Shown piece by piece: positions 29,498 to 47,161 of a DNA stretch of 64,000 bases. The position numbers and the translations under genes are program-made. Source of the DNA: Campylobacteraceae bacterium (GTDB taxonomy: Bacteria > Campylobacterota > Campylobacteria > Campylobacterales > Campylobacteraceae); assembly GCA_031270285.1 (NCBI GenBank), contig JAISXY010000041.1, positions 3,977-67,976 on the forward strand. The letters run 5' to 3'. Position 1 is the stretch's first letter. The number at the start of each line of letters is the position of its first letter. The notes below the pieces were generated by a model that made no database searches, was not told the origin of the DNA, and saw only the letters and a list, made by a program, of their open reading frames with translations.

Positions 29498-30688
29498 TTG
29501 GGCAAATATATCAATCTTCTTCGCTCAAATACTCTGTTGCGCAGGCTCTCATGCATACAACTCATCTGTTCTTTCGGCGCATGGTTCTCAAATGTCGCCA
29601 TATACAGTCTGTTGATAGAGTTAAGCTCTCCCGCATGGATTATCTCTACAACCGCCGTTTTAACATTTTTGCCGACAATGATTTTGGCGCCGTTAAGCGG
29701 CGTTTTGATAGACAAACTGCCTACAAAACCGCTCATGATAACGCTTTTTGTCATAGAAATAACAACGGTTTTGCTGTTGCTGCTTATAGATTCGCTTGAT
29801 ATGGTTTGGCTGCTTTTTGCGGTAATATTTTTAAGAATGGGAGCGGGAAGCGCATATTTTCAAACAGAAATGAGTCTGCTGCCATGTTTTTTAAAAGATA
29901 ATGATTTAAAACTTGCAAATGAGATTCACTCTATTATCTGGTCTATATCTTACACGGCGGGCATGGGACTGGCAGGTTTTTTTGTTTATATGTACGGCGT
30001 AAAAAGCGCTTTTATTGCGGATGCTGCGCTGTTTTTGATAGGGCTGGGACTTCTTGCAAATATCAAAATCCCATCTCTTGTCGCACAAAAAAGCGAGCGG
30101 TTGTTTTTTATGCTTAAAGACGGTTTTTTATACCTTAAAAAGAGTCCTAAAATTCTTCATATTATCATACTGCATGCATGCGTTGGCATAGCTTCGTATG
30201 ATGTTATCGTTGCACTTTTGGCAGATAAAGTCTATTATGCGGTGCTGGGTGCGCCTTTAGTTATAGGCTTCATAAATTCGTTTCGCGCCGTAGCTTTAAC
30301 GATTGGTTCGGCGATTTTCAGCCGCTTTGTAACCCGCAAAAGTTTTCATCTGTTCTTTTTTGCGCAAGGGGTTGGCATTATCGTTTGGGCAGCGCTGCAA
30401 TTCAACTTTTATCTCGCATTTATCGGTATATTTTTAGCAGGTCTGTTCTCCTCTACTATCTGGTCTTATACTTATACGATGCTGCAAAACTCTGTCTCAA
30501 AAGGTTATCATGGCAGAATGATAGCTTTTAACGATATGTTTTTGATGGGACTTACTTCATTTATCTCATTTTTAAGCGGATTTTTATACGATGCGGGATT
30601 TAGTTTAAGTATTATAACCGCTCTTTTGGGCGTTTTATTTATAATAGCGGGGATATATTATATGTGGGTAAGAAAAAACTATATGTAA
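29498..30688 (+). CDS. MFS transporter
   Basis: 396 aa with about 12 hydrophobic segments. Confidence 0.75.
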   Translation: MGKYINLLRSNTLLRRLSCIQLICSFGAWFSNVAIYSLLIELSSPAWIISTTAVLTFLPTMILAPLSGVLIDKLPTKPLMITLFVIEITTVLLLLLIDSLDMVWLLFAVIFLRMGAGSAYFQTEMSLLPCFLKDNDLKLANEIHSIIWSISYTAGMGLAGFFVYMYGVKSAFIADAALFLIGLGLLANIKIPSLVAQKSERLFFMLKDGFLYLKKSPKILHIIILHACVGIASYDVIVALLADKVYYAVLGAPLVIGFINSFRAVALTIGSAIFSRFVTRKSFHLFFFAQGVGIIVWAALQFNFYLAFIGIFLAGLFSSTIWSYTYTMLQNSVSKGYHGRMIAFNDMFLMGLTSFISFLSGFLYDAGFSLSIITALLGVLFIIAGIYYMWVRKNYM

Positions 30689-30721
30689 CCAACCGCTTCC
30701 ATGAAGCAAAGCGGTCGGTTA
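30687..30721. terminator. Stem-loop between the convergent MFS and OMP genes
   Basis: 13-bp stem with one mismatch, taaccaaccgctt / aagcggtcggtta. No clear T-tract follows. Confidence 0.4.
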
Positions 30722-30726
30722 TCCTG

Positions 30727-33700
30727 TTAATATGTTCCTACGGCGTTTAAGAACCAGCCTCTTGATTTGTAGTCCAATATCCTCAAATCATCGCTGAAGT
30801 CTGTAAAGTTATACCCGATACCAAGTCTGAAGTTTTTAGTGATATCTTTGTCTATACCTATCATGTATCCCTCTTTGGTACCTCCGTCTTTTATGTCAAG
30901 CACTCTGTACTCAACAAGGGTATGCCAATCATAAAGAAGGTCGTATCTGACTTGTCCTGCATAAAAAGTGGTTCTGGAGTCAAACCAATCTCCTAACCCT
31001 TCATACTTTATCTCTCCGAATCGTTGAGCATATTTTAGAGCAAATTCCCATTTGGCGTCATATTTATAAACACCTTCAAATGAGATGATTTGACTTTTTT
31101 GATCATATTCGCTGTTATATCCGTCATAAGTTATCTGTCCTGAAGGAGCAATATCGTAAAGATAGGTATATCTTCCGAACAGCGCAAATGAAGAAGAGTC
31201 AAACGGTCTGTATGCAAAACCTATATTTGCCTCTGTAAACTCCGCTCCGTCTTGAGCGTTATTGTTGTCTTTTGTTTCAGAGTAGTTAAATCTTCCCGCA
31301 AGCCTTAAAGACTCATTGAGTTTGTATGAGATTCTGTTTGTAGTCAAAAACTGCTCTCTCTCTTCTGATCCTCTGTCTTGTCTGTACTCTAATTTACTTA
31401 ACCAGTTCATGACGCTTGAAGTTTGACCTATACTAAAGGAGAACGCATCTCTTGTAGTCTCTTCTTGAGTACTGATTGAATTAAGATCTCCTTTTTGGTA
31501 TAAAAATCCCATATTCCAGCCCTCTCCGGGATAAAAATCCATACCTAAAGAGTTAGAGTTTCCTTTGGAGTTGCCGTTTCTGATTAGCTGAGATTCATTA
31601 TAGAGATTTATCTTATTTGTAAGATTCCACTTTTGTCCTACAGTAAAGCCCGTATCGGCTTTAGAGCTGAATATATTGTCGTTTGAATATCCCTCGCCGC
31701 TGTATGTATATCCTGCATAGATAGTGTGGTCTTTATTGAGTTCATGAGAGACGTCAAGATTGAGAGCTTCTCCTCTGTGTCCTGTTGTGTATCGTCCCTC
31801 TAAAGTGGAGCCGTTAAGAATGTATCTTGTGCCTACGACAATTGCGTCATTATTCTCATAAGCGCCTTGATTGTTATTTATCATAAATTGACCTGTAAAG
31901 TACGCTTCAAGATTTGAAGTTATATCATAGTCCGCTCTTACCGCTCCTACTGCTCCATGTATCTTTGAAGTGGCATTATTCTCTATCTCTCTGTAGTCTG
32001 CCTCTACGCTTAAGGTTAATTTCTCATTCGCTTTGTATGCGGTTTTTAAAGCCACTTCCGAATATGCGCTGTCATCACTCTCTCTTTCGCTCCTGCTTGC
32101 TTTGGCATAAACGCTTATATCGTTAGTGATTTCGGCTATAGTTTCAGCACCGTATTCTGTTATACCGCCAAGTGTAAGACTTGAAGCTGTTTGAGAAAAC
32201 TCTTTTTGCGCATCTCTGTACCATCCGCCCAATGTCAATTCATTATTTACAACGCCAAGCTCTTTAAAGTTTATCTTTGCATCAACGGCTATGGCATTAC
32301 CGCTTGTAGCATTGGACGCACTTCCTATATCGGTGAAATGCAAACCTCCGTTGTCAGAGTAGAATATAGAGCCTGCATTTGACTCTGTTCTGGTAATCTC
32401 GCCTCTGATATATGTTCCTTTGCCGAATTGCAGCGTTACATCTCCTCCGGCTATCTGATAATCATCGCTGGAGCTTCCTTTCTGTTCTCTGACATAAGTA
32501 CCGCCTACTGCTATATAATCATTTATCCACTGCTTAACTCTGACGCCTCCCGTCAAAATATCGTCTTCTAAATTTCTTGGCGCATATTCATAATCAACGA
32601 TCAACCTCTGCTCATAGCCGCTTAAAGGAGATGAGATGGTTATAGTATTGACATGTTGATAGATAATCTGAGATAAAGGACGGGATAAAATTACCCTTCC
32701 TTGAATATTATCCACTTCATAATCTATACCGTTTTTTAAATCTATCCTTGCTATCGTATTGCCCGTTATGGTATCGGTTACCTGCAAGAGTATCTTTTCA
32801 GAGCCGGGGAGTATATCCATGTGTTGTAGATAGTATAAGCTGCCGCCTGTTCCTAAAAATTCATTGTGTCCTAAAGCGCTCATGGCTTCCGAACCAAACA
32901 GTTTCACACTTCGTTTAGACTCTCCATAAGGATTTATGTCTATAGAGTTATAGTCAAGCTTTGCTCCGTAAAGAGTTCTTGAATACGAAGCGTACTCTGT
33001 GCCGCTAAATCCCGTATCATAATTACCCCATAGCGCTTCGCTCTTATCCCAGCCGACTTTTGCGTAAAATCTGCCTCGTGTATTTATATCTTTAAACACT
33101 GTAGAATCATCGCCATAGGTTGGATAATACATATCCGGATCTAATGATTCAAACAACTCTGTAGCGTCTGCTTGAGTGAAGCCTGAAAATAACCTATCTA
33201 TATCTCTTTGAGTAGTATCGGCTTGAGCTGTAATATGATATTTGCCGTACAATTTGCCTTTTGCATAGAAAGCCAGTCTGCCCTCTTCAAATACGTCTTC
33301 ATCATCATCAGCTCTCAAAGCGCTGTCGCTTACATCTGATTTTTTTACAGTTATGTCCGCTATAGCTACGCCAAACATATAATAAGGAGATACATCTACG
33401 CTTAAGCGTCCCTGTATATTCTCTTTTCCGATAAGAGCTATATCATAAGTGTGCGTTCCTACAGGCACTATATACTCTGCGGTAAATCTTCTCTCAAAGT
33501 CAATAGGATACTGCTCCGAATTAATTAAAAGAGCGCTCTCTTTGGGAATATTAACGCCTCGTACGATGACTTTTGAACCGTATGTGATGATATTTTGTTT
33601 ATCAATACTGTTTTGACCGAAAGCTTCATTTAACAAATACTGTGCGATAGCGGCTTCATTACTGCTGATCAACACGCCCTGCTCTTTTGAGATATGCTCT

Positions 33701-34404
33701 CTTATCTCATCTTTGCCGTTTTTTGCATCTTCGGGCTTAAGAAGAGAGATCGTTTTAGCAGACGTCTCATCAAATATTCCATCTTTGTCGTAAGCTTTCA
33801 GCACATATACCAATTCGTCTCCCGCTTTATAACTGTATTTGTCGGGAAGCTTACCGTCCCATTTTACTCTCGTAAAAGATGTCGGGGCTATATTGAGTAC
33901 AGCCAAAGGCTCTATAAGATCTTTATCTATGCTTCTATATATGGAAAGTTCAAGTCTGTCTATGAAAGCTGCATAATTTGTTCTGATATAAAAATCTAAA
34001 CTTTCAGTCAGCTGTCCGTTTTCTATCGACACAAACGATAAAGCGGCGGCATTTAAGGAGGTTCCGCCTATATTCGGATCTTCCGATACCCATATCAAAC
34101 CATTGTCCGGAAGTTGAATAGAGTAAGCGCTCGGATATATCAACGGGGCTTTAACATCCGTTATAAGCGGATCGTCCGTAACCGAAGCGTTGTTCTCTTC
34201 TATCGCATTTTCCTGCTCTTCTTCCAATGAAGGCGGAACAACCAAAGCAGGTTCTGACTGTATAATAACCGAATTAAAAGCCGGATTTTGTTCATCCAGT
34301 ATAATTATATCGTTATCAACCGTAACCTCGTTAGAGGCGTTCAATGGCATAGAGCCGATTAATAAAGCTGCCGCTAAGGCGCTGATTTTGATATTTCTTC
34401 TCAT
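30727..34404 (-). CDS. 1225-aa outer-membrane protein: N-terminal soluble region plus a large C-terminal beta-barrel; putative partner of the giant adhesin
   Basis: Signal peptide MRRNIKISALAAALLIGSMPLNA|S. In roughly the last 600 aa, hydrophobic and polar residues alternate with frequent aromatic girdle residues. The C-terminus ...GWFLNAVGTY ends in an aromatic residue (an OMP signature). The ATG overlaps the TGA of the upstream gene (tcat at 34401-34404). Confidence 0.6.
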   Translation of the reverse strand: MRRNIKISALAAALLIGSMPLNASNEVTVDNDIIILDEQNPAFNSVIIQSEPALVVPPSLEEEQENAIEENNASVTDDPLITDVKAPLIYPSAYSIQLPDNGLIWVSEDPNIGGTSLNAAALSFVSIENGQLTESLDFYIRTNYAAFIDRLELSIYRSIDKDLIEPLAVLNIAPTSFTRVKWDGKLPDKYSYKAGDELVYVLKAYDKDGIFDETSAKTISLLKPEDAKNGKDEIREHISKEQGVLISSNEAAIAQYLLNEAFGQNSIDKQNIITYGSKVIVRGVNIPKESALLINSEQYPIDFERRFTAEYIVPVGTHTYDIALIGKENIQGRLSVDVSPYYMFGVAIADITVKKSDVSDSALRADDDEDVFEEGRLAFYAKGKLYGKYHITAQADTTQRDIDRLFSGFTQADATELFESLDPDMYYPTYGDDSTVFKDINTRGRFYAKVGWDKSEALWGNYDTGFSGTEYASYSRTLYGAKLDYNSIDINPYGESKRSVKLFGSEAMSALGHNEFLGTGGSLYYLQHMDILPGSEKILLQVTDTITGNTIARIDLKNGIDYEVDNIQGRVILSRPLSQIIYQHVNTITISSPLSGYEQRLIVDYEYAPRNLEDDILTGGVRVKQWINDYIAVGGTYVREQKGSSSDDYQIAGGDVTLQFGKGTYIRGEITRTESNAGSIFYSDNGGLHFTDIGSASNATSGNAIAVDAKINFKELGVVNNELTLGGWYRDAQKEFSQTASSLTLGGITEYGAETIAEITNDISVYAKASRSERESDDSAYSEVALKTAYKANEKLTLSVEADYREIENNATSKIHGAVGAVRADYDITSNLEAYFTGQFMINNNQGAYENNDAIVVGTRYILNGSTLEGRYTTGHRGEALNLDVSHELNKDHTIYAGYTYSGEGYSNDNIFSSKADTGFTVGQKWNLTNKINLYNESQLIRNGNSKGNSNSLGMDFYPGEGWNMGFLYQKGDLNSISTQEETTRDAFSFSIGQTSSVMNWLSKLEYRQDRGSEEREQFLTTNRISYKLNESLRLAGRFNYSETKDNNNAQDGAEFTEANIGFAYRPFDSSSFALFGRYTYLYDIAPSGQITYDGYNSEYDQKSQIISFEGVYKYDAKWEFALKYAQRFGEIKYEGLGDWFDSRTTFYAGQVRYDLLYDWHTLVEYRVLDIKDGGTKEGYMIGIDKDITKNFRLGIGYNFTDFSDDLRILDYKSRGWFLNAVGTY

Positions 34405-37400
34405 TGCGCACCTCCTTCGGTTGTTGTCACCGAGCGCATAAGTGCCTCCAAATTCTTTATATTATCGGGCAGTTTTACCCCGAAGTCAAATCTTACGGGA
34501 ATACCCGGAGTCAATCTTCTAAGCAGAGGATTGGCTGTCGTAAATGTTGAGCCTGTAGGCAATGAGCTTGCATCAACTTTCATGATAAAGTTTCTGCCTA
34601 CGCCCCACTCTCCTCCGAGTATATTCAACAAGTGATACCTTCCGAATTGATCTGTTGTTATGATATAACCCTCCGCAGTTGCGATTCTAACGCCCGGTAT
34701 TCCTATTTCGCCTTCATCTTGCATGCCATTGGCATTGCTGTCTATATAGACGGTTCCGAATATCAAGCTCTCATCTATCATAGGATCTCCGGTGATTTCT
34801 ACTTCAGCCGAAGCTTTGTTAGAGATTGAGATTGACGCTTTAAAGGCTTCAACATATGATTTATGTTTTCCTTGTTTGACCCCTGCTCCTACTCTTAAGA
34901 TAAATACTACCTTTATCTCTCCGTTATTTGTTACCGTAAGATTATTAGCGTTAAACTCATGAGCGCTTATAAAGGTTGAATTAACCGTACCGTTAGCGGT
35001 GGTAGAGCTGACGGATCCTTCTACAAACGAGAATCCTTTAGGTATAGTATTTTTCAAGTCAAATATCGCCGGCTGGTCCATATTGTTTTGAATATTAACC
35101 GTATATCTTATTAGATCTCCTACATGCGCCATGCTGGTCGCTGCAGTAAAGTCTGTAATAGTAAGATTATCGTCAAATAATATTCTTCTAAACTCCCTTT
35201 CTATAGGGAAACCGCTGACGATTGAGCCGTTTATATATGCCGTAACATTGGCTTTGCCCCACTCTTCGCTCATCCAATATACCGTGCATGAGCCGTCCAA
35301 TCCCGTTAAGCATGTAAGCGTCTGGATATTGCCCGAGCTGGTATTAACATTAGACAGATTGCCTTTATCTATCTCAAAGTAGATACTAACATTCTCTGCC
35401 GCAGTAGAGTTAAACGCATCTCTTGCGATAACCGTTACAGTGTAATAATCAATTCCGTCAGCAGAAGCGTTTGTGGTATTATCTATCTCATGAGTTACAT
35501 AAATACCCGAATTGGTAGCGTTAACAGTGCCCGTTTGGAATATAACCGTAGCATTTTTTCCATGATCGTTGCCGTTTATATTTAGCCCGTTAATGATAAA
35601 GCTTACCGCTACGCTGCCCTGATTAAACGCCGTTAGATTAGCAGTATAATTTCCGCCTGTTCCGCCGTTTATCGTAACATTCTCCAATCCGTTAAGTTCT
35701 GCTGTACTGTTTGTATTATTTGCAAGAATATAAATGGTAACGCTTAAATTGTCGATAGGATTGCCGCCTTTATCTCCAAGATATACTGTTACCAGCGAGT
35801 TGCTTCCCACATCTACAGGGCTTACGGCTTGGATATTGGTATTATTATTGGATTCGTTTACATCAACCTCTCCCGAATTAAAATAGACCCATTCGGTATT
35901 GCTGCTTGGCGATCCTCCGTTTATGGTAAATGTCAGCGTAGTATTGCCTATCTTAGTTGAACGCAAGACGGCGCTGTATGTGCCGTTTACATTTGTCAAA
36001 GTTCCCGTATGACCTGCTGTTCCTCCGTCAAATGAGGAGTTGCTGAGGCTTGTGTAGATAACTACATCATGATTGGTATTTTTGATAGGATTGCCTTGAG
36101 CGTCATTGACTGTTACCGTTACCGTTACCGTATCGTCCGTAGTTACATTATGGGCGCTTACCGTAATATTTGACATATTAAGGTTAACCCCGCCTGTAAT
36201 GAATGTTCTTGTTCCGTTGAGCGTTATACTCTCTACATTAGCCGTGATATTTTGAGGATTATCGGCAAGTGTGCTTCTCCACAATACCGAGCAGTTACCG
36301 TTGCTTGCCGTAGTGCAAACAATAGTAGAATTAACGGCGGTAGTGTTATCGAGCCAGCTTGTTACAGGTACGGCTAAAGCGACCAATGCGTTATTTATCG
36401 GATTGCTGTGAATATCCAGCACTTCCACCGTAGTGGTATAGTAAGAGACATTATTTGCTTCTATAGAGTTATCGGCAACAGGATTAAAATGTATGCGCGA
36501 TGTCTGACTTGACGCACTTCCCGCAACGAATGTTTTTTTAATATCTTTTACGGAAGGAGTGCCATATCCATCAAGATATGTACTGCCCACGCTTGCGTAT
36601 ATCTGGTATTCGCCTGCGATATTAGCCTTGAGGGTAATATTTGCGGAGCATTGACCTGTCGCATTTGTTACGCATGAGTGTCCTCCTGCGATAGTTCCAT
36701 GGAAACCGTCTATGATCTTATCGTCAAGATATGCATCGCGCACTTCCACGCCGCCTCTGTATATCCTGAATGTAACATTTGCGCCCTCCATTTTATTTCC
36801 GCTGTTATCTTCTACATATGCGTTGAGAGCATAGTAAATTAAGCATGAGGCTATAGTGCTTTCGCTCTCTTCGCACACAGAGATATTATTAGGCTGTGAA
36901 GCGTTATAGCTGTCAACTCTAAAATATGAGCTGCTGCTTAAGCTGTCATATGTAAATCTTCTTGCCTTATCTTCATTGGAAGAGTATATAGGAGTCGTTT
37001 CTCCCGCTATAGTAACATTGACTAAAAATTCGCCCGTCTTATCGCTTCTCCATAGAACGAGACAATTTCCTAAACTGTCTGTTTGGCAAGTAGAGTTGCC
37101 TGCGGTAAATCCTGTATTATTATTTAACTCTCCGTACCCTATATAGATATTCATGAATTGGTTAGGAACGGCGTTGTTATATATATCACGCGCGGTTATA
37201 TTGAGCGTATAATAGTTGCCGCTGTTTGCTATAACCGTATCGGTTGGAGGAGTTATGACAAGCGTTGAATTAGCGTTTTGCGCAGTTCCTGCCGTAAATA
37301 CTCTCCTCTGCGGTGAAGCTAAAACAGGATCTCCGTTTCCTCCGAGATTTGTATCTGCGATAGTAGCGTTGATGGAGAAATTACCTGACTGGTTGCTTGT

Positions 37401-40400
37401 CCATGTAATAGAGCATTGTCCTGATGCGTTTGCTTCGCAGCTATCGCTGCTGAGCGTTCCGCCTTCTACGCTAAACTGTATTATAGCGCCCGGCGACAAT
37501 GTCCCCGTGCTACTTACTGCCGTTACGGTAGCCGTATAAAGTCCCGTACCTACTAAAACAGGTCCCGCAGGATCAACCGTAAGCGTAGAATTAAAGGCGG
37601 CAGCGTTTGAGGCTATAAATTGTCTTTGCGTACTACCCACCTGCCCTGCAGAGACATTTGCCCAAATCGTAGGACTGCCCGGCGTATCGCTTCTCCACCG
37701 AACAGAGCAACTTCCGTCCAAAGAGACGCATGTAAGCGTTGTACTTCTGTTTGTAGTGTTGTCAAGCCATCCGCCGTTTACTGTGAATGTAACAAGTTCT
37801 CCCGTTATATCATGATTTAGAGCGTCTTTGATATATGCCGTAGCTGTAAAATAGCTGGAGTTATCTGCCGTTCTGCTTGTAGTAGGCAGCACCGTGAGAT
37901 TTGAAGTTGCAAAACTGACGATGCCCTGTACGAAATCTCTGTATTGCAATCCGCTTATTATCATGCCCTCAACTTTGGCAGTTACGGAAAAGTTTCCGAC
38001 TTTATCGCTAAACCAAGTAATAGAGCAGTTGCCGTTTGCGAGCGTTGTGCATGTGCTGTTTTTGTATGAAACTGTGCTATTGTTTAGATAACCCTCCTGC
38101 ACATCAAATGTGATTAACGATCCGGGTTTATTGTTCTGGTAAGCGTCTTTTATATTTACGCTCAACGTATATGCAGAAATATTATCGGCTGTAACGCTTG
38201 AAAGAGGCGTTATGACAAAGCTTGAATCTCCTAAACTTACAGGTCCGGGGATAAACTCTCTTATTTGAGTGCCGTTTTGTATAAGTACATTGCCTACCGT
38301 AGCGTTTATTGTAAAGTTATTGGCATTTGTGCTTGACCAGTATATCGTTATATTTCCGCTTAAAGGATCAACGCTGTAAGAGTTTATCGTATAGCTTCCG
38401 TCTAACAATCCGCCGCTTACGCTGACCAAAACAGAGCCTGAGGTAGGAATATTGCTGCTATCTCTAAGAGTTATCACGGCAGTATATCTATCCGTACCGT
38501 TTGCTGTTTTAGGGCCGGCTTCTACTATATATAAATCGGAAAAAGAGGCGTTAGCGCTTCCTGATTTAAATTCTCTTATTTGAGGCGAATTTGATATGGC
38601 TGTCCCATTCGTAAGAGCTGCCGTTATTGTAAAGTTTCCTTTCTCGCTCGGACTTACCCAGTAATATTCGCAGTATCCTTGAACGTTTGTAGTACAAATT
38701 ATACTCTGGATTGTTCCCGGACTGTTTACATTTGTCGTAAGCGTACCGTTAGTTACTGTAATATTAATGTTAGTACCCGGAACAAAGTTCGGACCAACGC
38801 TGTCTTTTGCGTATGTTCTTACAGTATAGTAACCGCCCTCAGAATCCACAGGTCCCGCACCCGTTACCGTGAGATTGGAACTTAACGCACTTACCGTTGC
38901 GGGAATAAATGTCGCCGTTTGATTGGAGCCTGTTATTTCAGGTCCGGTTTCGCTGCCAAATCTAACCGTAATCTTATACGTGCCTACCAAATTACTCCAA
39001 AGCGTATTGGTACTTATAGCGGCCGCGCCTGTGGTGCTGTTCATGCTGTCCGTTTCTGTTCCGACCAAACCGAAGCCGGCGCCATCTATCGCAGGTTCCA
39101 AACTGTAAAATACATATTGATTGGTTATCGTGTTGTTGTATTTGTCTCTTAATGTAGCGTTCATGTTAAATAATTGACCTACACTCTTAGGACCGGCTTC
39201 CAAAAGGAATGTTGAAGTGGTTTCATTGGCAAGTCCTGCGGTAAAGCCTTTTATAGCAGGGCTGCCGCTGATATGTTTGCCGTCAATGGTAGCATTCATC
39301 GTATAACTGCCCGCTATCGTGCTTGTCCATACGACAAAGCATGTACCGTCTGCGGCTGTTGTGCAGCTATATGTATTAAGCGCTCCGCCGCTGACTGCAA
39401 AATTGACGACCTTATTGCCTACCGCATTACCATTGTTGTCTTTTATAAGCGCCGTTGCCGTAAAATTACTTTCAACGGAGACAGAATCCTGAGGCGGATT
39501 GAAACTAAGCGATGAGGTAGTGTTATTTGCCGAACCGCTTGTAAATATAGTAGAAGCGTTTTTGCTGTGGTTGCTGTTGCTTCCTACTTCAAATCCAAAT
39601 GTTACCGTCTCGGAAACGGGAGTAGTGAAATAAAGCGTATATCTTCCGTTGCCTGTGCCGTCTTGACCTATTGTAGCCGTTGATGGATTAAATGTGCCGT
39701 TATTGCCGCTGTTGCCGCTCAATATTATTATCTTGACCGTTTCATTATTGACGGGGTTATTTTTATCGTCTTTCAGCGTTACGGTTATAGTAGAATTACT
39801 GTTTACCTCTACTGTTGAAGTCGCCGTGATAGTCGTATTAGGATGACCGATACTGACGTTTCCGGATTTAAATTTAGCCCAATCTGTTTTATGAGGAGTA
39901 ACGGAAGTGCTGCCGCCCACATTTGCCACATAGAAAGCAAATGTAACATTCTTTGAACTGTTTGTTGAAGCGGTTGCCGTATATGTTCCGTTATTAAGAT
40001 CAACTACAGAGGAGAAAATGACATCGTTGTTAACTCCCAATACAGTGCCGTTTTCCAAAGTAGCGTTAGCGACGCTGAATGTTACTGTCTCTCCATCTAC
40101 TCCATTACCGTCGCTATCAAGCAAATGCAGCGTAATAGTAACGTTCTCTCCCGCATATACTTCATGAGGAGATACGCTGAATATTGAGTTTGTAAGATTC
40201 ACATTCCCAACTGTAAAGGTTGTCGTATCGTTATTGTTCGCAGGAGCGATTACGTTGTTTGCGCTAAAGCCAAATGTTACGTTTCCTGCGACAGTCGTAC
40301 TGTATGAAACGGTATAGTATCCGCCTCTTTGATCGCTGCTATCTGCCGTATAAGTTATAGAATTATTTGAACCCGGCGGTACAAAATTGCCGGTGTCGTT

Positions 40401-43400
40401 TACCAGCACTCTTACGCCCACGGTTGCATTTGTTATCGTGTTGTTGAGTTGGTCGGCAAGATAGACTTTTATAATAGAGTTAGTGCCGACTTGCGTTGCA
40501 TTCGTAGCGTCTATAAAAGAGTGTGATTGATTGCCAAGATCAGGATCATTTGGATTAAATTTTGCATTTGCCGATTTATTACTGTAATCCGAACCTATAT
40601 GAAAGGTTACGTTATAATCGCCCGTTATATTGGAAGTGATATTGGCGGTATATATGCCGTTACCAAGTCCATTCGCTATTACAGGATAGATAGTAGCGTT
40701 TATACTGTTTGCAGAATTTACATATATCTCCATCTGTTTTCCATCTATAGAGTTATTGTCATTATCCGCAAAATAAACCGTTACCAGCGAGGTATTGCCC
40801 GCATTTGTTACATTAGGCTCTACTCTTATGGTGGTATAATTGCCGCTTGTATTACCACCTGTCGCACTAAAGATAGCCGTAGCGTTTTTCGTTTCATTGG
40901 CACTTACGCCATTCGCTTGAAAGCTTACTATCACGGTGCCTTGCAGTACGCTTGTAAGATTTATATCATAAAAGCCGTTATTGTGATTTACTACATTGGT
41001 GTTATGAAAAGCAGGAACGCCTCCAGCTGTTCCACCCAAATATACTAATGTGACTGTAGCGTTCAGTACGGGATTATTAAATCTATCCCCTATCCATATT
41101 ACCGCCGTAGCGTTTTCTGAAACGCCGATATTTGGATACGGTATCGTTATATTTGAACTGTTAAGATCCGGTACATCATGATGAAAATAAGCCGTTGCGC
41201 CGTTTGGTGCGCTGGAAGCTCCGTTCACCGAAAATGTCAAAAATACATTACCTGAAATATTTGAACTGATATTTGCGCTGTATGTACCGTCTCCGTTATC
41301 TATGGCTGTTATATTACTTCCTGCCGTAGATATGGCATGCGTGCCGTTTGAAAGATGAGGAACTGCCCCAGTGATTGCAGATATAAATAACTTTACATCG
41401 TCTCCGCCTGATGCTATGGTCGTGTTATTGCTATCTTTCAGCGTTACTAATACCGAAGAAGTTCCGCCCACCGTATTATTGCTCGGTATGACGGTTATCT
41501 GCGAATTGCCGACATGTATGCTTGAAGTAGAAATATCTACACGGCATACTACATCGCTTCCAAATGTAGGCGAAATACTAAAAGTACCGTTACCTACTAT
41601 GTCATATGGTAGTGTCGTTATACCACCTATGGCGCATGTTGCCTCAAATTTGTATCTGCTTAGCGGCGCCGTACTTCCCGAAGCCATTTTAATTGTTATA
41701 TTATTTGTATGATCCGCTTCAAGTATTGCAAAAGCGGTCAAATCGCTTGCTGTTCCCGATGAAGTATTTGACGTAAGCAGCAAAGATGTGTTCATGTCTG
41801 TGATACTTAAGTTGAACTGGTCGTTACCAAACGCCCTTCCCGTTATATTCGCATTCACTGTAACGGTAGGAGCCGTACCGTAAGAAAAGGTGCAGATAAT
41901 ATCCGAATTTGTCTTAACATCGCTTGCCGCTATAGTTATATTATCATACCATTTGCCCGATACTTGATATCTCGCAAATGTCAAAGGCAAATTAGCGTTA
42001 GCATTACTCAAATCTTTACAAGTAGTCTCATTGCTCATGATACCAAGCGTTTGAGGCTTATCTACCGTGATTGAAACGGCCGTACCCGCTGAATTTATCC
42101 TGTGAACTACTCCTAAAGGCTCATCCGTTACATTATTTGCTGATGTGGTATAAAATGTAGTGGAAGCGGTTGAGGGAGGAGTGGCGGACGCAAGTATATT
42201 GCTCATGTTAAAGGTAAAATTACCGCTGTTGCCCGTAGTTCCTACGGTTTTTAGAGCGACTCTTACCTGTCTATCTACAACAAATATCCGATAATCCTCT
42301 ACCTCTCCGTCCAGTACCCATGGATTAGATGCGCTGGAGCTTGCATTGGCTGTAGCCGATATGCCTGAAGAGGTCGTGTATCTTGCTCTCAAGAAACTGC
42401 CTCCGACGCCCTGTGCGGGGAGAGTCCCGCTAAAAGTTATATTGTCTCCCGTACCTACTTGATCTGTCGCTCCAAAATTACTCCAACTATTTACGCTTGC
42501 CGCTATAAAAACGCTGAGTTTACCTTCGTTTTTTTTACTGCCGTTGATATCCGCTTTGAACGCATAGGCTGTATTTGGTACAAAACCTCTCTCTTGTACG
42601 GGTATATATCTGTTATCTACAAACACATAGATACCGTCGTCGTACGAGTCGCTGTTTGCCAGCGAATTTCCTATATAGTTTTGGTCTATAGTTACATTTG
42701 AGCCGAGATATGCGAAAAGCTGACTGTTTTTCTTTAAAACGGAGCTGTGAAGTACTTCGTTAAAGTTTGCGTCGCTTCTATCTGAAGCGATAGTAAAGGC
42801 GAAATTGGCTCTGGAAACTGCCAAGTCGGTTGTTACATGAACTTTTGATATATAATTGGCGATTGAATCCGCGCCGTTGGCGGTACTGTCAATGCCATCC
42901 GCCCGTTTGCCGTAGCATGAGCGGTTAGAAGAGCTGCCCGTAGTGTCGTCAACGCTGGTATTCAAATCTGCGCAATAGTTAGATACGGTATTGACGTTGC
43001 CGCCGGAGTTAGGCGTGCTAAATGTCCCGCCCGAAGCCCATGTCTGCGCTAAATGGGTGCCGTTTACGGCGGGGTTTTTGACGCGCACATAAAAGTCCAC
43101 ATTATTGGTATCGTTGATGATAAAAGAGTAAGTGCCGTTATTGGCGGTAGTTGTAGTGCTAAGCAAAGCGCCTGATTGGCTGTAGAGTTGCACCGTCAAG
43201 CCGTCTATACCATTCTCTGTACCCGATATAACGCCGTCTCCCTCTGCATCGTTAAATACCTGTCCTCTAAGGATAGGAGAAACTTGGCAAGAGGCAAGGT
43301 CAATAAGCTCACCAGATCCCATATCTATAACAGAAGAGCCTACAATCCCTGAAAGCGGATCCAATGATCCTATATCGCCACCATCATCTCCAAAATACAA

Positions 43401-44204
43401 CTTACCGTTCAAAAAAGCCATACCCCATACATTACTAGGATTGTTGCCACTAGGCATACCCGTAATACTGCTTACAATGTCGCCACTCCATGGAGCAGGG
43501 TAAAAAGTGCCGTCCTGTTTTTTGATATTGATACGCATTAAAAACCAGTTATTGTTGGTATTACTATCTACTGTTACCAACACATATGCGTTTCCTTCAG
43601 CATCTATCGCCATATCGGAAGCAACAAAATATTGTTTACCATCTGACGATATAACGCGGCTGTAAGTAGAAGTGTGGGAAGTGGTGTTATAAACGCCGAT
43701 GGCAAAAGTGCCTTGACTGCTGCTAGATGTTCCTGTGTAGCTGGTATAATCGCCGGTTATATATATCTCTCCTGTTAATTGATTGACTTCGCCGCCTGAT
43801 AAGTCTTCGCCAAAAGCGTAAAAACGGTTAGCAGGATTACCAATATTACCCCAATTGGCACCACCACTATCTATATAGCGTACCCCATTTGCTGTATCAC
43901 CATTATAACCATAACCCCAACTATACATTCTAAGAGTGCTGCTGCCAGGCGGGCGACCTAACGCGATAGTATCATAAGTGTCAGTAGACGGTGGATTAAG
44001 TCCTGTGCTAGTCGATGTTCCTGTTTCTACATTTACCTCGTAAAGATTAGTACCGCTCTTATCTGCATATAACCTATCGCATCTAAAATCCCATGCATGA
44101 GCGCTCATGCTCAAAGCCATAACGGCAAAGACAGAAAATAGTAATTTTTTTATGAAACAAATCTTACAAGAAAGATTAAGACTTTTTAGCTCAGACATTT
44201 GCAT
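34401..44204 (-). CDS. 3267-aa secreted giant adhesin: beta-propeller-like N-domain, SdrD-B-like, GEVED-motif region, about 20 Big_1 (invasin/intimin-type) Ig repeats, DUF11-like and SdrD-B-like C-terminal modules
   Basis: A GAGGGG RBS precedes the start, and the signal peptide is ...AVMALSMSAHA|WD. GQVFNDAEGDGV...NGTYSF lies at residues about 311-380, and LDGEVEDYRIF at about 631-641. About 19-20 domain junctions of the form xF(x)xGxxxxxxSxLxVxP occur between residues about 895 and 3005 (nt about 41522-35190). ITDFTAATSMAHVGDLIRYTVNIQN lies at about 3016-3040. IFGTVYIDSNANGMQDEGEIGIPGV lies at about 3143-3167. Confidence 0.85.
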   Translation of the reverse strand: MQMSELKSLNLSCKICFIKKLLFSVFAVMALSMSAHAWDFRCDRLYADKSGTNLYEVNVETGTSTSTGLNPPSTDTYDTIALGRPPGSSTLRMYSWGYGYNGDTANGVRYIDSGGANWGNIGNPANRFYAFGEDLSGGEVNQLTGEIYITGDYTSYTGTSSSSQGTFAIGVYNTTSHTSTYSRVISSDGKQYFVASDMAIDAEGNAYVLVTVDSNTNNNWFLMRINIKKQDGTFYPAPWSGDIVSSITGMPSGNNPSNVWGMAFLNGKLYFGDDGGDIGSLDPLSGIVGSSVIDMGSGELIDLASCQVSPILRGQVFNDAEGDGVISGTENGIDGLTVQLYSQSGALLSTTTTANNGTYSFIINDTNNVDFYVRVKNPAVNGTHLAQTWASGGTFSTPNSGGNVNTVSNYCADLNTSVDDTTGSSSNRSCYGKRADGIDSTANGADSIANYISKVHVTTDLAVSRANFAFTIASDRSDANFNEVLHSSVLKKNSQLFAYLGSNVTIDQNYIGNSLANSDSYDDGIYVFVDNRYIPVQERGFVPNTAYAFKADINGSKKNEGKLSVFIAASVNSWSNFGATDQVGTGDNITFSGTLPAQGVGGSFLRARYTTSSGISATANASSSASNPWVLDGEVEDYRIFVVDRQVRVALKTVGTTGNSGNFTFNMSNILASATPPSTASTTFYTTSANNVTDEPLGVVHRINSAGTAVSITVDKPQTLGIMSNETTCKDLSNANANLPLTFARYQVSGKWYDNITIAASDVKTNSDIICTFSYGTAPTVTVNANITGRAFGNDQFNLSITDMNTSLLLTSNTSSGTASDLTAFAILEADHTNNITIKMASGSTAPLSRYKFEATCAIGGITTLPYDIVGNGTFSISPTFGSDVVCRVDISTSSIHVGNSQITVIPSNNTVGGTSSVLVTLKDSNNTTIASGGDDVKLFISAITGAVPHLSNGTHAISTAGSNITAIDNGDGTYSANISSNISGNVFLTFSVNGASSAPNGATAYFHHDVPDLNSSNITIPYPNIGVSENATAVIWIGDRFNNPVLNATVTLVYLGGTAGGVPAFHNTNVVNHNNGFYDINLTSVLQGTVIVSFQANGVSANETKNATAIFSATGGNTSGNYTTIRVEPNVTNAGNTSLVTVYFADNDNNSIDGKQMEIYVNSANSINATIYPVIANGLGNGIYTANITSNITGDYNVTFHIGSDYSNKSANAKFNPNDPDLGNQSHSFIDATNATQVGTNSIIKVYLADQLNNTITNATVGVRVLVNDTGNFVPPGSNNSITYTADSSDQRGGYYTVSYSTTVAGNVTFGFSANNVIAPANNNDTTTFTVGNVNLTNSIFSVSPHEVYAGENVTITLHLLDSDGNGVDGETVTFSVANATLENGTVLGVNNDVIFSSVVDLNNGTYTATASTNSSKNVTFAFYVANVGGSTSVTPHKTDWAKFKSGNVSIGHPNTTITATSTVEVNSNSTITVTLKDDKNNPVNNETVKIIILSGNSGNNGTFNPSTATIGQDGTGNGRYTLYFTTPVSETVTFGFEVGSNSNHSKNASTIFTSGSANNTTSSLSFNPPQDSVSVESNFTATALIKDNNGNAVGNKVVNFAVSGGALNTYSCTTAADGTCFVVWTSTIAGSYTMNATIDGKHISGSPAIKGFTAGLANETTSTFLLEAGPKSVGQLFNMNATLRDKYNNTITNQYVFYSLEPAIDGAGFGLVGTETDSMNSTTGAAAISTNTLWSNLVGTYKITVRFGSETGPEITGSNQTATFIPATVSALSSNLTVTGAGPVDSEGGYYTVRTYAKDSVGPNFVPGTNINITVTNGTLTTNVNSPGTIQSIICTTNVQGYCEYYWVSPSEKGNFTITAALTNGTAISNSPQIREFKSGSANASFSDLYIVEAGPKTANGTDRYTAVITLRDSSNIPTSGSVLVSVSGGLLDGSYTINSYSVDPLSGNITIYWSSTNANNFTINATVGNVLIQNGTQIREFIPGPVSLGDSSFVITPLSSVTADNISAYTLSVNIKDAYQNNKPGSLITFDVQEGYLNNSTVSYKNSTCTTLANGNCSITWFSDKVGNFSVTAKVEGMIISGLQYRDFVQGIVSFATSNLTVLPTTSRTADNSSYFTATAYIKDALNHDITGELVTFTVNGGWLDNTTNRSTTLTCVSLDGSCSVRWRSDTPGSPTIWANVSAGQVGSTQRQFIASNAAAFNSTLTVDPAGPVLVGTGLYTATVTAVSSTGTLSPGAIIQFSVEGGTLSSDSCEANASGQCSITWTSNQSGNFSINATIADTNLGGNGDPVLASPQRRVFTAGTAQNANSTLVITPPTDTVIANSGNYYTLNITARDIYNNAVPNQFMNIYIGYGELNNNTGFTAGNSTCQTDSLGNCLVLWRSDKTGEFLVNVTIAGETTPIYSSNEDKARRFTYDSLSSSSYFRVDSYNASQPNNISVCEESESTIASCLIYYALNAYVEDNSGNKMEGANVTFRIYRGGVEVRDAYLDDKIIDGFHGTIAGGHSCVTNATGQCSANITLKANIAGEYQIYASVGSTYLDGYGTPSVKDIKKTFVAGSASSQTSRIHFNPVADNSIEANNVSYYTTTVEVLDIHSNPINNALVALAVPVTSWLDNTTAVNSTIVCTTASNGNCSVLWRSTLADNPQNITANVESITLNGTRTFITGGVNLNMSNITVSAHNVTTDDTVTVTVTVNDAQGNPIKNTNHDVVIYTSLSNSSFDGGTAGHTGTLTNVNGTYSAVLRSTKIGNTTLTFTINGGSPSSNTEWVYFNSGEVDVNESNNNTNIQAVSPVDVGSNSLVTVYLGDKGGNPIDNLSVTIYILANNTNSTAELNGLENVTINGGTGGNYTANLTAFNQGSVAVSFIINGLNINGNDHGKNATVIFQTGTVNATNSGIYVTHEIDNTTNASADGIDYYTVTVIARDAFNSTAAENVSIYFEIDKGNLSNVNTSSGNIQTLTCLTGLDGSCTVYWMSEEWGKANVTAYINGSIVSGFPIEREFRRILFDDNLTITDFTAATSMAHVGDLIRYTVNIQNNMDQPAIFDLKNTIPKGFSFVEGSVSSTTANGTVNSTFISAHEFNANNLTVTNNGEIKVVFILRVGAGVKQGKHKSYVEAFKASISISNKASAEVEITGDPMIDESLIFGTVYIDSNANGMQDEGEIGIPGVRIATAEGYIITTDQFGRYHLLNILGGEWGVGRNFIMKVDASSLPTGSTFTTANPLLRRLTPGIPVRFDFGVKLPDNIKNLEALMRSVTTTEGGAQ

Positions 44205-44499: not shown

Positions 44500-45725
44500 T
44501 CTCTATGTCATTCCAATATTTTACGTCATTCCCGCGTAGGCGGGAATCCATCTTTTCTTCTTTCGTCATTCCCTTATGTCATTCCCGCTTCCTCCCTTTT
44601 TCCCTCCCCCTCTATGTCATTCCCGCGTAGGCGGGAATCCATCTTCTCATGACGATTATTTATCAAAAATCCATTTTTTCATGAAAGCATTTTTGTTATC
44701 TCTTTTTGGATACCCGTCTTCACGGGTATGACGTAAAGAGAGTGTCATTCCTTTTTTCCCCTCCTCCTTTTTTCGTCATTCCGCACCCCTATGTCATTCC
44801 TGTTTCCCTCTGTCATTCCCGTGCAAACGGGAATCCATCTTCTCATGACGACTATTTATCAAAAATTCATTTTTTCATGAAAGCATTTTTGTTATTTTTT
44901 TTGGATACCCGATTGCTCGGGTATGACGAAAAGAGAGTGTCATTCCTTTTTTCCCCTCCTCCTTTTTTCGTCATTCCCGCCTCTCCCCTATGTCATTCCC
45001 GCGCAGGCGGGAATCCAAACGTCATTCCCTCCTCACACTATGTCATTCCCGCGCCCTACGCCCAAGCTTACGAAGTAAGCGCATATCGTGAGGGATGGCG
45101 GGAATCCAAGAGCGCATCAAATTATCTTTCATTTCAAACAAAGCAAAAGCGCATAAAACCAAAAACTTTCACTGCTCCCCTCCCCCTTACGTCATTCCCG
45201 TGAAAACGGGAATCCATCTTCTCATGACGACTATTTATCAAAAATTCATTTTTTCATGAAAGCATTTTTGTTATTTCTTTTGGATACCCGTTTGCACGGG
45301 TATGACGTAGAGAGTGTATGTCCTTCCTTTTTCTTTTTTCGTCATACCTCGCCCTCACTTATGCCATTCCCGTTTCCCCCCCCTTTCGTCATTCCCGCGA
45401 CCGAACGACAAGCTTACGAAGTAAGCGCATATCGTGAGGGATGGCGGGAATCCATCTTCTCATGATAATTATTTATCAAAAATCCATTTTTCCGTAAAAA
45501 CATTTTTGTTGTTTCTTCTTTGGATACCCGCCTACGCGGGTATGACGTAGGGGACGGATATAACGTAGAAAGGGTTGGATTTCCGCCTACACAGGAATGA
45601 CGTAAAGGGCGGATACCCATTCTCAAGGAAACATTTTGGAAATGCGCTTCGCTTGTTTTCAAGGGAATGACGTAGGGGTGGGCGGGTATGACATGAAAAC
45701 ATGGGCATGACATAAAGTGTGTCAT
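44500..45725. repeat. Mosaic palindromic repeat array C (largest; about 195-bp composite unit repeated about 5 times)
   Basis: Type-1 cores lie at 44525-44549, 44616-44640, 44812-44836, 44992-45016 and 45191-45215. Expanded type-1 elements lie at 45042-45107 and 45388-45453. Type-2 cores lie at 44708-44733, 44903-44928, 45282-45307 and 45522-45547. Shared spacers atcttctcatgacga.tatttatcaaaaat.cattttttcatgaaagcatttttgttat and polypyrimidine modules separate them. Confidence 0.9.
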
Positions 45726-45779
45726 TTCTGCTTCATGAAAGAATCCAAAAAATATGTTAAAATAGCCGAAAGGCAAAAA

Positions 45780-46076
45780 ATGCAATCAAAGCAAGGTTAT
45801 GTTTATATATTGTCAAACAGACCAAACGGGACGCTGTATATCGGCGTAACTTCGGATTTGGTAAAAAGAGTACATGAACACAAAAACCATCTTGTTGAGG
45901 GATTTACTTCAAAATATGACTTAAATGATCTTGTCTATTATGAGATATTTGATGATATTGTTAATGCGATATTGCGGGAAAAACAGATGAAAAAATGGAA
46001 CCGCGCTTGGAAGCTAAAACTGATAAATAAGTTCAATCCTGCATGGAGGGACTTGTATGATGATATTTGTAAGTAA
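45780..46076 (+). CDS. GIY-YIG nuclease family protein (small stand-alone, UPF0213-like)
   Basis: Contains GYVYILSN..NGTLYIGVTSDLVKRVHEHK...REKQMKKWNRAWK. The start was chosen at the Met after GAAAGG, because the longer ORF (45717) runs into repeat sequence. Confidence 0.8.
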   Translation: MQSKQGYVYILSNRPNGTLYIGVTSDLVKRVHEHKNHLVEGFTSKYDLNDLVYYEIFDDIVNAILREKQMKKWNRAWKLKLINKFNPAWRDLYDDICK

Positions 46077-46122
46077 ATCCAAATTTCTATCCACTCTGTT
46101 TATCGCATAATAGAGAAATCGC

Positions 46123-46386
46123 CTACTCATAAACATCTTTTCTATGAGCTATCCTTAAAATCAAAACGACTAATTCGCTATCTTGTATCTTGCAAATGAT
46201 ACGATAATCCCCAACGCGATAACGCCAATACTCTCTCAATTTGCCCTTAAGAACTTTACCGTTTTGCCTTGGATAGCTTTGCGCGGAAAGTTTTTCAAGA
46301 AAAGAGATGATCTGCATGGATGCCGATCTATCAAGCTTTGATAACTCTTTTTTGGAGCTGGCTTTAAATCTAACTATCCAGCTCAA
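46123..46386 (-). CDS. Type II toxin, RelE/ParE (StbE-like) family
   Basis: 87 aa with LKGKLREYWRYRVGDYRIICKIQDSELVVLILRIAHRKDVY. It overlaps the antitoxin gene by 17 nt. Confidence 0.85.
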   Translation of the reverse strand: MSWIVRFKASSKKELSKLDRSASMQIISFLEKLSAQSYPRQNGKVLKGKLREYWRYRVGDYRIICKIQDSELVVLILRIAHRKDVYE

Positions 46387-46585: not shown

Positions 46586-46654
46586 TTTAAATTCCTCACT
46601 AATGTATTCAATGAAAACATTGTAATACAATTTATCAAAAATGTCAATTTAAGA

Positions 46655-47100: not shown

Positions 47101-47161
47101 AAAAGAATTGCATTAAAGGAAAACAGAAATGAATAAGGAGGTGAATTGCTATAAAGACAAT

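Follow-up and report, generated by a model that had tools for sequence, protein, structure and literature searches.

A giant fibrillar adhesin and a neighbouring predicted giant beta-barrel protein in a Campylobacteraceae bacterium: candidate split form of an autotransporter-like display system

Introduction

Several of the systems by which diderm bacteria display or secrete proteins at the outer membrane resemble, each in part, the locus described here. In type Va secretion (classical autotransporters), a Sec-dependent protein carries its passenger at the N-terminus and a 12-strand barrel (PF03797) at the C-terminus, and the passenger is displayed or anchored by its own barrel without a dedicated ATPase. 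Type Ve proteins (intimin/invasin) have an N-terminal 12-strand barrel and a C-terminal passenger with Big_1/Invasin_D3 repeats, whereas in type Vb, or two-partner secretion (TPS), a Sec-dependent passenger with an N-terminal TPS domain (TpsA) is encoded separately from, and co-transcribed with, a 16-strand Omp85 transporter with POTRA domains (TpsB). Type IX secretion (T9SS) handles Sec-signal cargo with a conserved beta-sandwich C-terminal domain of about 100 aa by means of a giant single-chain barrel of 36 strands (SprA/Sov), which admits folded domains. Finally, LapA-type adhesins, which belong to type I secretion (T1SS), have no Sec signal and combine C-terminal repeats-in-toxin (RTX) sequences with an N-terminal retention module, an ATP-binding cassette (ABC) transporter, membrane fusion protein (MFP) and TolC, and LapG/LapD; these giant repeat adhesins are retained by a folded terminal module that does not fit through the outer-membrane channel. 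Here, we analysed a 64,000-nucleotide stretch of DNA from a Campylobacteraceae bacterium (GenBank assembly GCA_031270285.1, contig JAISXY010000041.1, positions 3,977 to 67,976 of the forward strand), hereafter designated as the window, in which the gene of a 3267-aa fibrillar adhesin is followed on the minus strand by that of a 1225-aa outer-membrane protein predicted to form a giant beta-barrel. Based on sequence comparisons, we consider it probable that this pair is the split form of a widespread autotransporter-like display system, the barrel being the adhesin's dedicated display and anchoring partner.

The fibrillar adhesin B9T28_05395 of Acinetobacter silvestris, with CLIPPER repeats, was described as having an N-terminal head, a GEVED-like domain, a repeat stalk and a C-terminal "OmpA-like anchoring domain" (Protein Sci 2025, PMC12617251). 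Neither a barrel partner nor an export route is mentioned there, and the route by which Sec-dependent fibrillar adhesins of this kind, with an Ig-like/isopeptide stalk and an "OmpA-like anchor", reach the surface is left unexplained in the searchable literature. With regard to giant barrels, Solan et al. (PNAS 2021, PMC8346858) predicted uncharacterised 38- and 40-strand single-chain barrels that would surpass every solved one in size, for which the accessible part of the article gives no function or partner. A 2026 preprint still names SprA, with its 36 strands, as the largest known barrel.

Pairing of the adhesin and barrel genes across genomes

Barrel homologues were examined in 83 loci from other genomes, belonging to Gamma- and Betaproteobacteria and to Campylobacteraceae. 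In 82 of them, a long open reading frame (ORF) on the same strand ends just upstream of the barrel homologue, which bears out the co-occurrence with giant adhesin genes that a preliminary description of the window had put forward as a check of its proposal. The majority of these upstream partners are longer than 1500 aa or reach past the end of the contig, and contig breaks within them are frequent. The spacing is tight: in three annotated genomes, those of Lysobacter, Neisseria and Zophobihabitans, which belong to different orders, a gap of -1 to 10 nt separates the barrel homologue from adhesin genes of 3537, 5362 and 6374 aa. The pairing of adhesin and barrel is not chance, because it recurs in 82 of 83 independent loci. 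The exception was found in Lysobacter yangpyeongensis (L018; 9809-13369, 20493-20777), where a gene bearing the C-terminal domain (CTD) described below lies about 7 kb downstream of the barrel gene on the same strand; two further apparent exceptions (L012 and L057) are ORF-calling problems.

A third conserved gene was sought across the 83 loci, and only lineage-specific neighbours were found (extra CLIPPER proteins and a histidine kinase; Lysobacterales), with no syntenic transporter. In many loci of the Lysobacterales, the barrel gene is followed by genes for one or two secreted proteins of about 800 aa, as seen in L006 (6441-8795 and 8972-11419) and 34 other loci. These proteins carry DUF11/CLIPPER, SpaA_4 or DUF7933 domains and resemble Gram-positive pilins; none is encoded in the window. 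They may represent additional cargo or serve as accessory subunits.

A conserved C-terminal domain ends the passenger

The adhesins paired with barrel homologues have little in common along most of their length. Their stalks are unconserved and are built, depending on the partner, of DUF11/CLIPPER, CLIPPER_2, Big_9, Cadherin_5 (cadherin-like), Invasin_D3 or CshA_repeat domains. The CTD of the window's adhesin, by comparison, matches 80 of the 82 partner C-termini, in an alignment spanning Campylobacteraceae, Gamma- and Betaproteobacteria with a mean column identity of 67% and 17 invariant residues. It is 50-76% identical to its counterparts in 79 partners, and exactly one copy occurs on the adhesin strand in every one of the 83 loci. 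Judging from this alignment, the CTD and not the stalk is the conserved part of the adhesin. Its AlphaFold2 (AF2) model, with a predicted local distance difference test (pLDDT) score of 91, is a seven-strand sandwich, for which the nearest structure found by Foldseek is the Staphylococcus aureus SdrD B domain (TM-score over the query, TMq, 0.65; root-mean-square deviation 2.2 Å; 23% identity).

In 65 of the 80 partners, the CTD is followed by a C-terminal OmpA peptidoglycan-binding domain. Since this domain occupies the extreme C-terminus, the C-terminus of the adhesin would be periplasmic; with the N-terminal head outside, the point at which the chain traverses the outer membrane would therefore lie directly before the CTD. 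We propose that the CTD is a contact or docking module for the barrel and, at the same time, a stopper. No OmpA domain (PF00691) was found in the window's adhesin or in its closest relative (L004), both of which end about 20-30 residues past the CTD; the window's protein has a tail of 18 residues in OmpA's place.

Stand-alone CTD-like SdrD_B proteins of 136-156 aa were observed in Cocleimonas flava (L084, 8001-8471) and Chelativorans sp. (L085, 8001-8411). Three CTD-only proteins of about 140-160 aa were examined, of which two have no adjoining barrel gene and one is a split locus. A homologue search with the CTD profile returned mainly short fragments and revealed little on cargo diversity.

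Fused one-gene relatives

The top 150 representatives of the barrel family include 62 stand-alone proteins like the window's and 73 proteins of 1.5-7.4 thousand residues whose C-terminal part is the complete barrel module. One CTD is located 10-660 aa before the barrel module in 66 of these 73 fused representatives, and the order of domains is passenger, CTD, optional OmpA and barrel module. P0207 thus comprises a signal peptide, five CLIPPER_2 and four CLIPPER domains, the CTD, about 15 residues and the barrel module, while P0213 has the CTD, OmpA and about 40 residues before the barrel module; the junctions of both are clean and in frame, without an internal signal peptide. Rhodothermales (7308-7402 aa) and Cetobacterium somerae (5264 aa) likewise have fused forms, the latter protein being present in one complete genome and in more than 10 other assemblies. 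The fusions are genuine and share the domain order of the operon. Natural fusions in operon order are the classical argument that two proteins, here those of the window, act as one unit.

Whether a locus is split or fused has to be judged case by case when the assembly is a draft, since the status may then be artefactual. For Cetobacterium somerae ATCC BAA-474 (P0365/P0366/P0367), the complete genome encodes a single protein of 5264 aa, whereas an older draft has two of 4156 and 1020 aa.

The barrel protein and its family

The barrel protein has more than 860 close homologues. More than 100 proteins align with it at 44-79% identity over 92-100% of the query, which makes the barrel module of about 1130 aa homologous over its full length. 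The nearest relatives (75-79% identity) are found in Campylobacteraceae metagenome-assembled genomes (MAGs), and full-length relatives at 44-48% in Lysobacter, Pseudoxanthomonas, Luteimonas, Stenotrophomonas, Neisseria and Zophobihabitans. When one genome per species was scanned, at least 591 relatives were obtained, and a search of 1.84 billion cluster representatives (clusters at 50% identity) with a profile of the trimmed alignment gave 3722 at E <= 1e-3, of which 1203 reach E <= 1e-30. In the databases, these homologues are labelled "hypothetical" or, for several at NCBI, "TonB-dependent receptor".

A few records place family members or CTD fragments in hosts without a matching envelope or in eukaryotes, namely Nocardiopsis yanglingensis (L029), a Chitinophaga pinensis MAG (L037), M. 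tuberculosis (P0130) and Rhizopus delemar (P0148). The C-terminus of the L029 adhesin closely parallels that of a Stenotrophomonas locus (L041), and all four records look like contamination or mis-binning in public databases.

The preliminary description had named TonB-dependent receptors and LptD as examples of known, unrelated families to which the barrel might belong. The barrel protein matched no family in Pfam or NCBIfam, DUF2490 being found only below threshold, and a profile built from 39 homologues yielded 0 matches at E <= 10 among all PDB sequences, FhaC and BamA included. Foldseek comparison of the full model with the PDB returned generic barrel matches only, with a TMq of at most 0.22, from which no family can be assigned; the best of these are the largest known barrels, with SlpA at the top (30 strands, TMq 0.19-0.22), SprA (36 strands, TMq 0.13-0.18), LptD and MtrB. 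By these searches, the barrel protein is a family of its own, without detectable relative among known translocators. LptD (26 strands) and the chaperone-usher ushers (24 strands and a plug) were rejected as candidates, with no Pfam match, no PDB match at E <= 10 and a TMq of at most 0.16.

A very large barrel, which the preliminary description had seen in the last 600 aa or so, is supported by the AF2 model but is predicted to extend further, over about 880 aa and about 40 strands. The model has a mean pLDDT of 69 and a predicted TM-score (pTM) of 0.60, and its strands were counted from the DSSP list. The chain ends in a typical aromatic beta-signal (GWFLNAVGTY). At its N-terminus, the acidic linker has a pLDDT below 50 (model residues 1-67) and is unaligned in most homologues (rows with 92% coverage). 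The N-terminal domains that come next are presumed to be periplasmic or to act as a plug, a placement drawn from fused relatives in which this region lies 10-50 aa after OmpA or the CTD. Two invariant motifs stand out in the barrel itself. The first, LDPDMYYPTYGDDS (residues 421-434; window 33103-33144), is located in a loop with a pLDDT below 50; the second, GTGGSLYYL (residues 518-526; window 32827-32853), begins a small inserted beta domain that is partly of low confidence (model residues 484-498). Both motifs may mark a functional site, for instance a plug, a gate or a partner contact.

A barrel of about 40 strands would exceed SprA and would probably be the largest single-chain beta-barrel known. 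By geometric estimate, it would measure about 8 nm across between C-alpha atoms, a width that would be enough for folded Ig-like domains and would suit stalks locked by isopeptide bonds. So wide a barrel would need a plug, which might be provided by the N-terminal domains, the CTD or the inserted beta domain. The protein may belong to the superfamily of 38- and 40-strand barrels predicted in PMC8346858, where such barrels are supported by contact maps; the DSSP list of the AF2 model has about 40 (38-42) long strands for it.

Adhesin domains and the two-gene locus

The features of the two genes are collected in Table 1. Pfam detects Invasin_D3 in 10 stretches of the adhesin (E 1e-76) and Big_1 in 11 (E 4.5e-75), as well as an SdrD_B domain near the N-terminus and a second at the C-terminus. 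Among the proximal stalk modules, SpaA_3 is above the Pfam threshold, while SpaA_4 and the GEVED-like domain are below it, and SpaA_4 shows up solely in a separate scan of the N-terminal piece. The N-terminal head is presumed to be an adhesive tip, by analogy of position with the head of the CshA-like adhesin in PMC12617251. Families of RTX (HemolysinCabind), TPS (Haemagg_act), autotransporter and intimin-type barrel proteins were found in neither protein with Pfam and NCBIfam.

Table 1. Location of the features of the adhesin and barrel genes in the window, with the evidence for each
Feature	Position	Strand	Evidence
Adhesin gene (passenger), 3267-aa fibrillar adhesin	34401..44204	-	ORF list, translation, Pfam Big_1/Invasin_D3/SdrD_B/SpaA_3
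Adhesin signal peptide, Sec-type, residues 1-37, cleavage after AHA (...SMSAHA/WDF)	44094..44204	-	translation, by eye
N-terminal head, residues ~38-312, presumed adhesive tip	43269..44093	-	Pfam of the piece, nothing significant; position
Proximal stalk modules, residues ~315-895: SdrD_B, GEVED-like, SpaA_4, SpaA_3	41520..43262	-	Pfam
Stalk, about 20 Ig-like repeats, residues ~896-3005	35190..41519	-	10-11 seen by Pfam as Big_1/Invasin_D3
Weak DUF11/CLIPPER-like domain, residues ~3020-3101	34902..35147	-	PF01345, E 0.0015, 19.3 bits, cut-off 24.6 (sub-threshold)
CTD, SdrD-B-like beta-sandwich, residues 3139-3249	34458..34790	-	partner alignment, AF2, Foldseek
Short C-terminal tail, residues 3250-3267, predicted helix	34404..34457	-	AF2 helix at model residues 114-126
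Coupling junction: GGAGG 34411-34415, barrel ATG 34402-34404, adhesin TGA 34401-34403	34401..34415	-	sequence read
Barrel-partner gene, 1225-aa outer-membrane protein	30727..34404	-	ORF and translation
Barrel-protein signal peptide, residues 1-23 (...SMPLNA/SNE, by eye), and acidic, poorly conserved linker to ~90	34135..34404	-	translation; AF2
N-terminal non-barrel domains, residues ~91-340, beta-sandwiches and helical hairpin	33385..34134	-	AF2 secondary structure, pLDDT 75-95
Predicted giant beta-barrel, residues ~342-1225, about 40 strands (38-42)	30730..33381	-	AF2 DSSP strand list
Terminator-like hairpin, 14-bp stem and T-rich tail, 5 nt past the barrel stop	30686..30721	-	consensus scan

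The junction between the two genes reads GAAGGAGGTGCGCAATGAGA; stop and start codons overlap in ATGA at 34401-34404, and GGAGG precedes the barrel gene's ATG by 6 nt. The hairpin past the barrel gene looks like the end of a two-gene operon. Taken together, the ATGA overlap, the GGAGG and this terminator-like hairpin suggest that the pair forms a self-contained operon with translational coupling. They stand alone, with a convergent major facilitator superfamily (MFS) gene at 29498-30688 downstream and, upstream of the adhesin gene, a region of lower GC content (0.36) with many short palindromic repeats at 44.2-47.1 kb.

In all these respects the preliminary description agrees with what was found: the ORF pair and its overlap were confirmed by the ORF list and by reading the sequence, Sec-type signal peptides were seen by eye in both translations, the giant protein has no RTX or TPS match, and the pair is isolated between the MFS gene and the AT-rich repeat region. 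Its characterisation of the adhesin as a Big_1/DUF11 protein holds for Big_1, with about 10 repeats in Pfam, but DUF11 was detected only below threshold (19.3 vs 24.6 bits).

The flanking genes are of housekeeping, Campylobacterota type and encode an MqnC-like radical SAM protein, an M16 peptidase, PriA, Lon and the Campylobacter major outer-membrane protein (MOMP). Two paralogous Campylo_MOMP porin genes, 47282-48505 (-) and 55461-56639 (-), lie 7 kb apart and confirm a Campylobacterota host. T1SS or TPS genes were not found among the neighbours in the scanned part of the window. The only hint of a type II secretion system (T2SS) or type IV pilus in the window is a type IV pilin-like or pseudopilin gene at 51598-52062 (-), whose product of 154 aa has an N-terminal prepilin-type methylation motif (N_methyl).

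In the repeat region, a palindromic element with the core GTCATTCCCGCGTAGGCGGGAATCCA occurs in many copies and in both orientations, inside repeat units of 50-130 nt (window 44500-47110); the whole looks like a cluster of extragenic palindromes of the repetitive extragenic palindromic (REP) kind. Small genes are interspersed, as read from their translations by eye: one at 45717-46076 (+) is GIY-YIG-like, with the motif GYVYILSN...YIGVTSDL, and two that overlap, at 46123-46386 (-) and 46370-46630 (-), resemble a RelE/ParE-type toxin and a ribbon-helix-helix antitoxin. The window also encodes a second large surface-type protein, of 1801 aa and with Calx-beta domains, at 13470-18875 (-). This gene is followed by those of a 238-aa protein (12752-13468, -) and a 298-aa protein (11862-12758, -), neither with a Pfam match, and the three may form another uncharacterised surface-protein operon.

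Comparison with described systems

The classical autotransporters share several traits with the present system. Both are Sec-dependent, the passenger would here too be displayed or anchored by its own barrel without a dedicated ATPase, and the fused relatives have the same polarity, with an N-terminal passenger and a C-terminal barrel. The differences are that about 40 strands are predicted here, without sequence or close fold similarity to the 12-strand barrel, that an SdrD-B-like domain, usually with OmpA and more periplasmic domains, stands between passenger and barrel, and that a two-gene form exists as well. The window's proteins were rejected as a classical autotransporter, with PF03797 unmatched in Pfam and the predicted barrel of about 40 strands.

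The likeness to intimin and invasin drawn in the preliminary description is valid for the Big_1 stalk domains alone, shared as Big_1/Invasin_D3 repeats in the passenger; it does not extend to polarity, the fused relatives being ordered as in classical autotransporters. The two systems also share a periplasmic peptidoglycan-binding domain in many members (LysM in type Ve, OmpA here). Big_1 is not a defining feature of the present family, the stalks of relatives being in some cases CLIPPER, Big_9 or cadherin-like. An inverse autotransporter was rejected: Pfam detects an intimin-type barrel in neither protein, and the barrel is C-terminal to the passenger in the fused relatives.

As in two-partner secretion, passenger and putative outer-membrane transporter are here separate, co-transcribed and Sec-dependent proteins. 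In contrast to that system, the conserved module is C-terminal, the barrel gene lies downstream and the passenger is probably retained, and neither the N-terminal TPS domain nor an Omp85 barrel with POTRA was found; a TpsB-type transporter was rejected with no Pfam match to Haemagg_act, POTRA or ShlB in either protein.

Sec-signal cargo with a conserved beta-sandwich CTD and a giant barrel are traits shared with type IX secretion, and the best fold matches of the barrel protein, weak as they are, include SprA. Neither SprA nor T9SS CTD families showed any similarity in sequence with Pfam, NCBIfam or the PDB profile, and no PorK/L/M/N motor or PorU/V genes are found nearby. Here there is one barrel per cargo, sometimes fused to it, and the hosts include Pseudomonadota, Campylobacterota and Fusobacteriota as well as Rhodothermales. 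Type IX secretion was rejected, in the absence of any T9SS CTD or SprA family match, with the low TMq to SprA and the SdrD B-like fold of the CTD.

The stopper principle of LapA-type adhesins, by which a giant repeat adhesin is held at its folded terminal module, would also have its counterpart here, but none of the other components of that system was found. The RTX/LapA-type T1SS was rejected, the adhesin having a Sec-type signal (by eye) and no HemolysinCabind match, with no T1SS genes among the scanned neighbours. As regards the fibrillar adhesin B9T28_05395, an Acinetobacter adhesin of such architecture adjoins a barrel homologue (L034); the window's adhesin differs from it in having Big_1 instead of CLIPPER repeats and in having no OmpA domain.

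Proposed mechanism and alternatives

We propose that the adhesin and the barrel protein would both cross the inner membrane by Sec, and that the machinery for beta-barrel assembly (BAM) would insert the barrel protein in the outer membrane, where a barrel of about 40 strands would form with its beta-sandwich and helical domains on the periplasmic side. The CTD of the adhesin (about 100 aa, SdrD-B-like) would dock at the periplasmic mouth of the barrel or in its lumen, and the Ig-repeat stalk and head would travel via the lumen to the cell surface. The CTD would then be retained as stopper and anchor, reinforced in most relatives, though not in the window's protein, by an OmpA-type domain. Translational coupling through ATGA would help keep adhesin and barrel in step.

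The elements of this scheme differ in strength. The gene pair with its coupling signals and synteny, the conserved CTD, the frequent OmpA domain, the fusions and the missing homology to known translocators are observations. We infer that the adhesin is exposed at the surface, that the CTD is the contact module and that the barrel has the strand count given above. The preliminary description had suggested a dedicated barrel exporting or anchoring a separately encoded Ig-repeat passenger, with contact through DUF11 and SdrD-B-like modules. Synteny, the CTD and the fusions support such a partnership, and contact through the SdrD-B-like module, while contact through DUF11 has not been upheld; export through the barrel is a proposal. 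That the adhesin passes through the barrel lumen is, in our estimation, an evenly balanced proposition. More tentatively, and with a probability that we would set somewhat short of even, the pair may represent a new self-contained pathway of outer-membrane secretion and anchoring, either a new class or a type V subclass, in which a barrel of about 40 strands would pass folded stalk domains and the CTD would plug it, with one- and two-gene forms in at least four diderm phyla.

Several observations weigh against display through a dedicated barrel. Confidence in the barrel model is only moderate, and the most conserved barrel motif (YYPTYGDDS) sits in a low-confidence loop. Nor is any energy source apparent that could drive about 3000 residues through the outer membrane. 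Without an OmpA domain, anchoring of the window's adhesin would rest on the CTD alone, and the protein could instead be released. The stand-alone CTD-like proteins of Cocleimonas flava and Chelativorans sp. are 41-47% identical to the window's CTD and have housekeeping neighbours with no barrel homologue nearby; the CTD fold is therefore not exclusive to the adhesin and barrel system. Finally, a T1SS, T2SS or TPS transporter may be encoded elsewhere in the genome, beyond the visible 64 kb.

Some of these points are also those on which an alternative would build, in which the barrel is a socket or anchor only and the adhesin crosses by a T2SS, with assistance of BAM or TAM (translocation and assembly module), or by an unlinked transporter, to be held thereafter through binding of CTD and barrel. 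The CTD, as a stable folded SdrD-B-like sandwich, suits binding; neither an energy source nor a translocation motif was identified; and the visible genome amounts to 64 kb. Yet OmpA domains, which are periplasmic, stand at the C-termini of most relatives, and in the fused proteins the CTD and OmpA covalently precede the N-terminal domains of the barrel protein; the chain would therefore have to cross the membrane at the barrel protein. A barrel of about 40 predicted strands would be far larger than an anchor needs, and none of the 83 loci has another syntenic transporter. We thus regard a pure anchor as unlikely.

Still less can be said for an uptake channel, that is, a barrel which forms with the adhesin a capture-and-import device and not an exporter; we hold it to be very improbable. 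The label of TonB-dependent receptor that NCBI attaches to several homologues, and the presence of such receptors among the generic Foldseek barrel matches, are outweighed by the lack of any match to Plug (PF07715) or TonB_dep_Rec (PF00593) in Pfam or to an NCBIfam model and by TM-scores to these receptors of 0.12-0.16. On these findings, a TonB-dependent receptor, which has an N-terminal plug domain with a TonB box inside its 22-strand barrel, was also rejected as a classification. About 40 strands are predicted vs 22; moreover, covalent fusion to the C-terminus of an adhesin is no known receptor architecture. The least probable reading, with hardly any weight, is an envelope tether connecting outer membrane and peptidoglycan like SlpA of Deinococcus, with the giant protein unexposed, for although the top Foldseek match is the barrel of SlpA, a connector of outer membrane and cell wall, and OmpA domains are common in the partners, the TMq to SlpA is only 0.19-0.22, the window's adhesin has no peptidoglycan-binding domain, its stalk of about 3000 residues, Ig-like and of isopeptide type, with a distal head, has the architecture of a surface fibrillar adhesin (PMC12617251), and a rod of such length is too long for the periplasm. 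The periplasmic OmpA end, the fusions and the missing plug and TonB features speak against all three alternatives.

Significance for fibrillar adhesins and the barrel family

A full-text literature search, with subscription-only literature outside its reach, found no description of the function of the barrel family, of its pairing with adhesins or of the fusions. The pair in the window is one member of a large family, and that a Sec-dependent passenger is displayed by an outer-membrane barrel of its own is already known in kind; the chance is substantial that specialists would count the pair as a new system. A giant barrel coupled or fused to an adhesin offers a concrete candidate for the export route of Gram-negative fibrillar adhesins. 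If confirmed, autotransporter-like display would give a function to a large orphan outer-membrane family that has no Pfam model and bears partly wrong labels of "TonB-dependent receptor"; if true, it would also broaden the autotransporter principle, which would then include a non-homologous barrel that is found both split and fused. With its small conserved docking domain, the two-gene form is convenient for genetic tests and might serve as a scaffold in surface display. Relatives of the system occur in Stenotrophomonas maltophilia and Acinetobacter, and it may thus bear on the adhesion of opportunistic pathogens.

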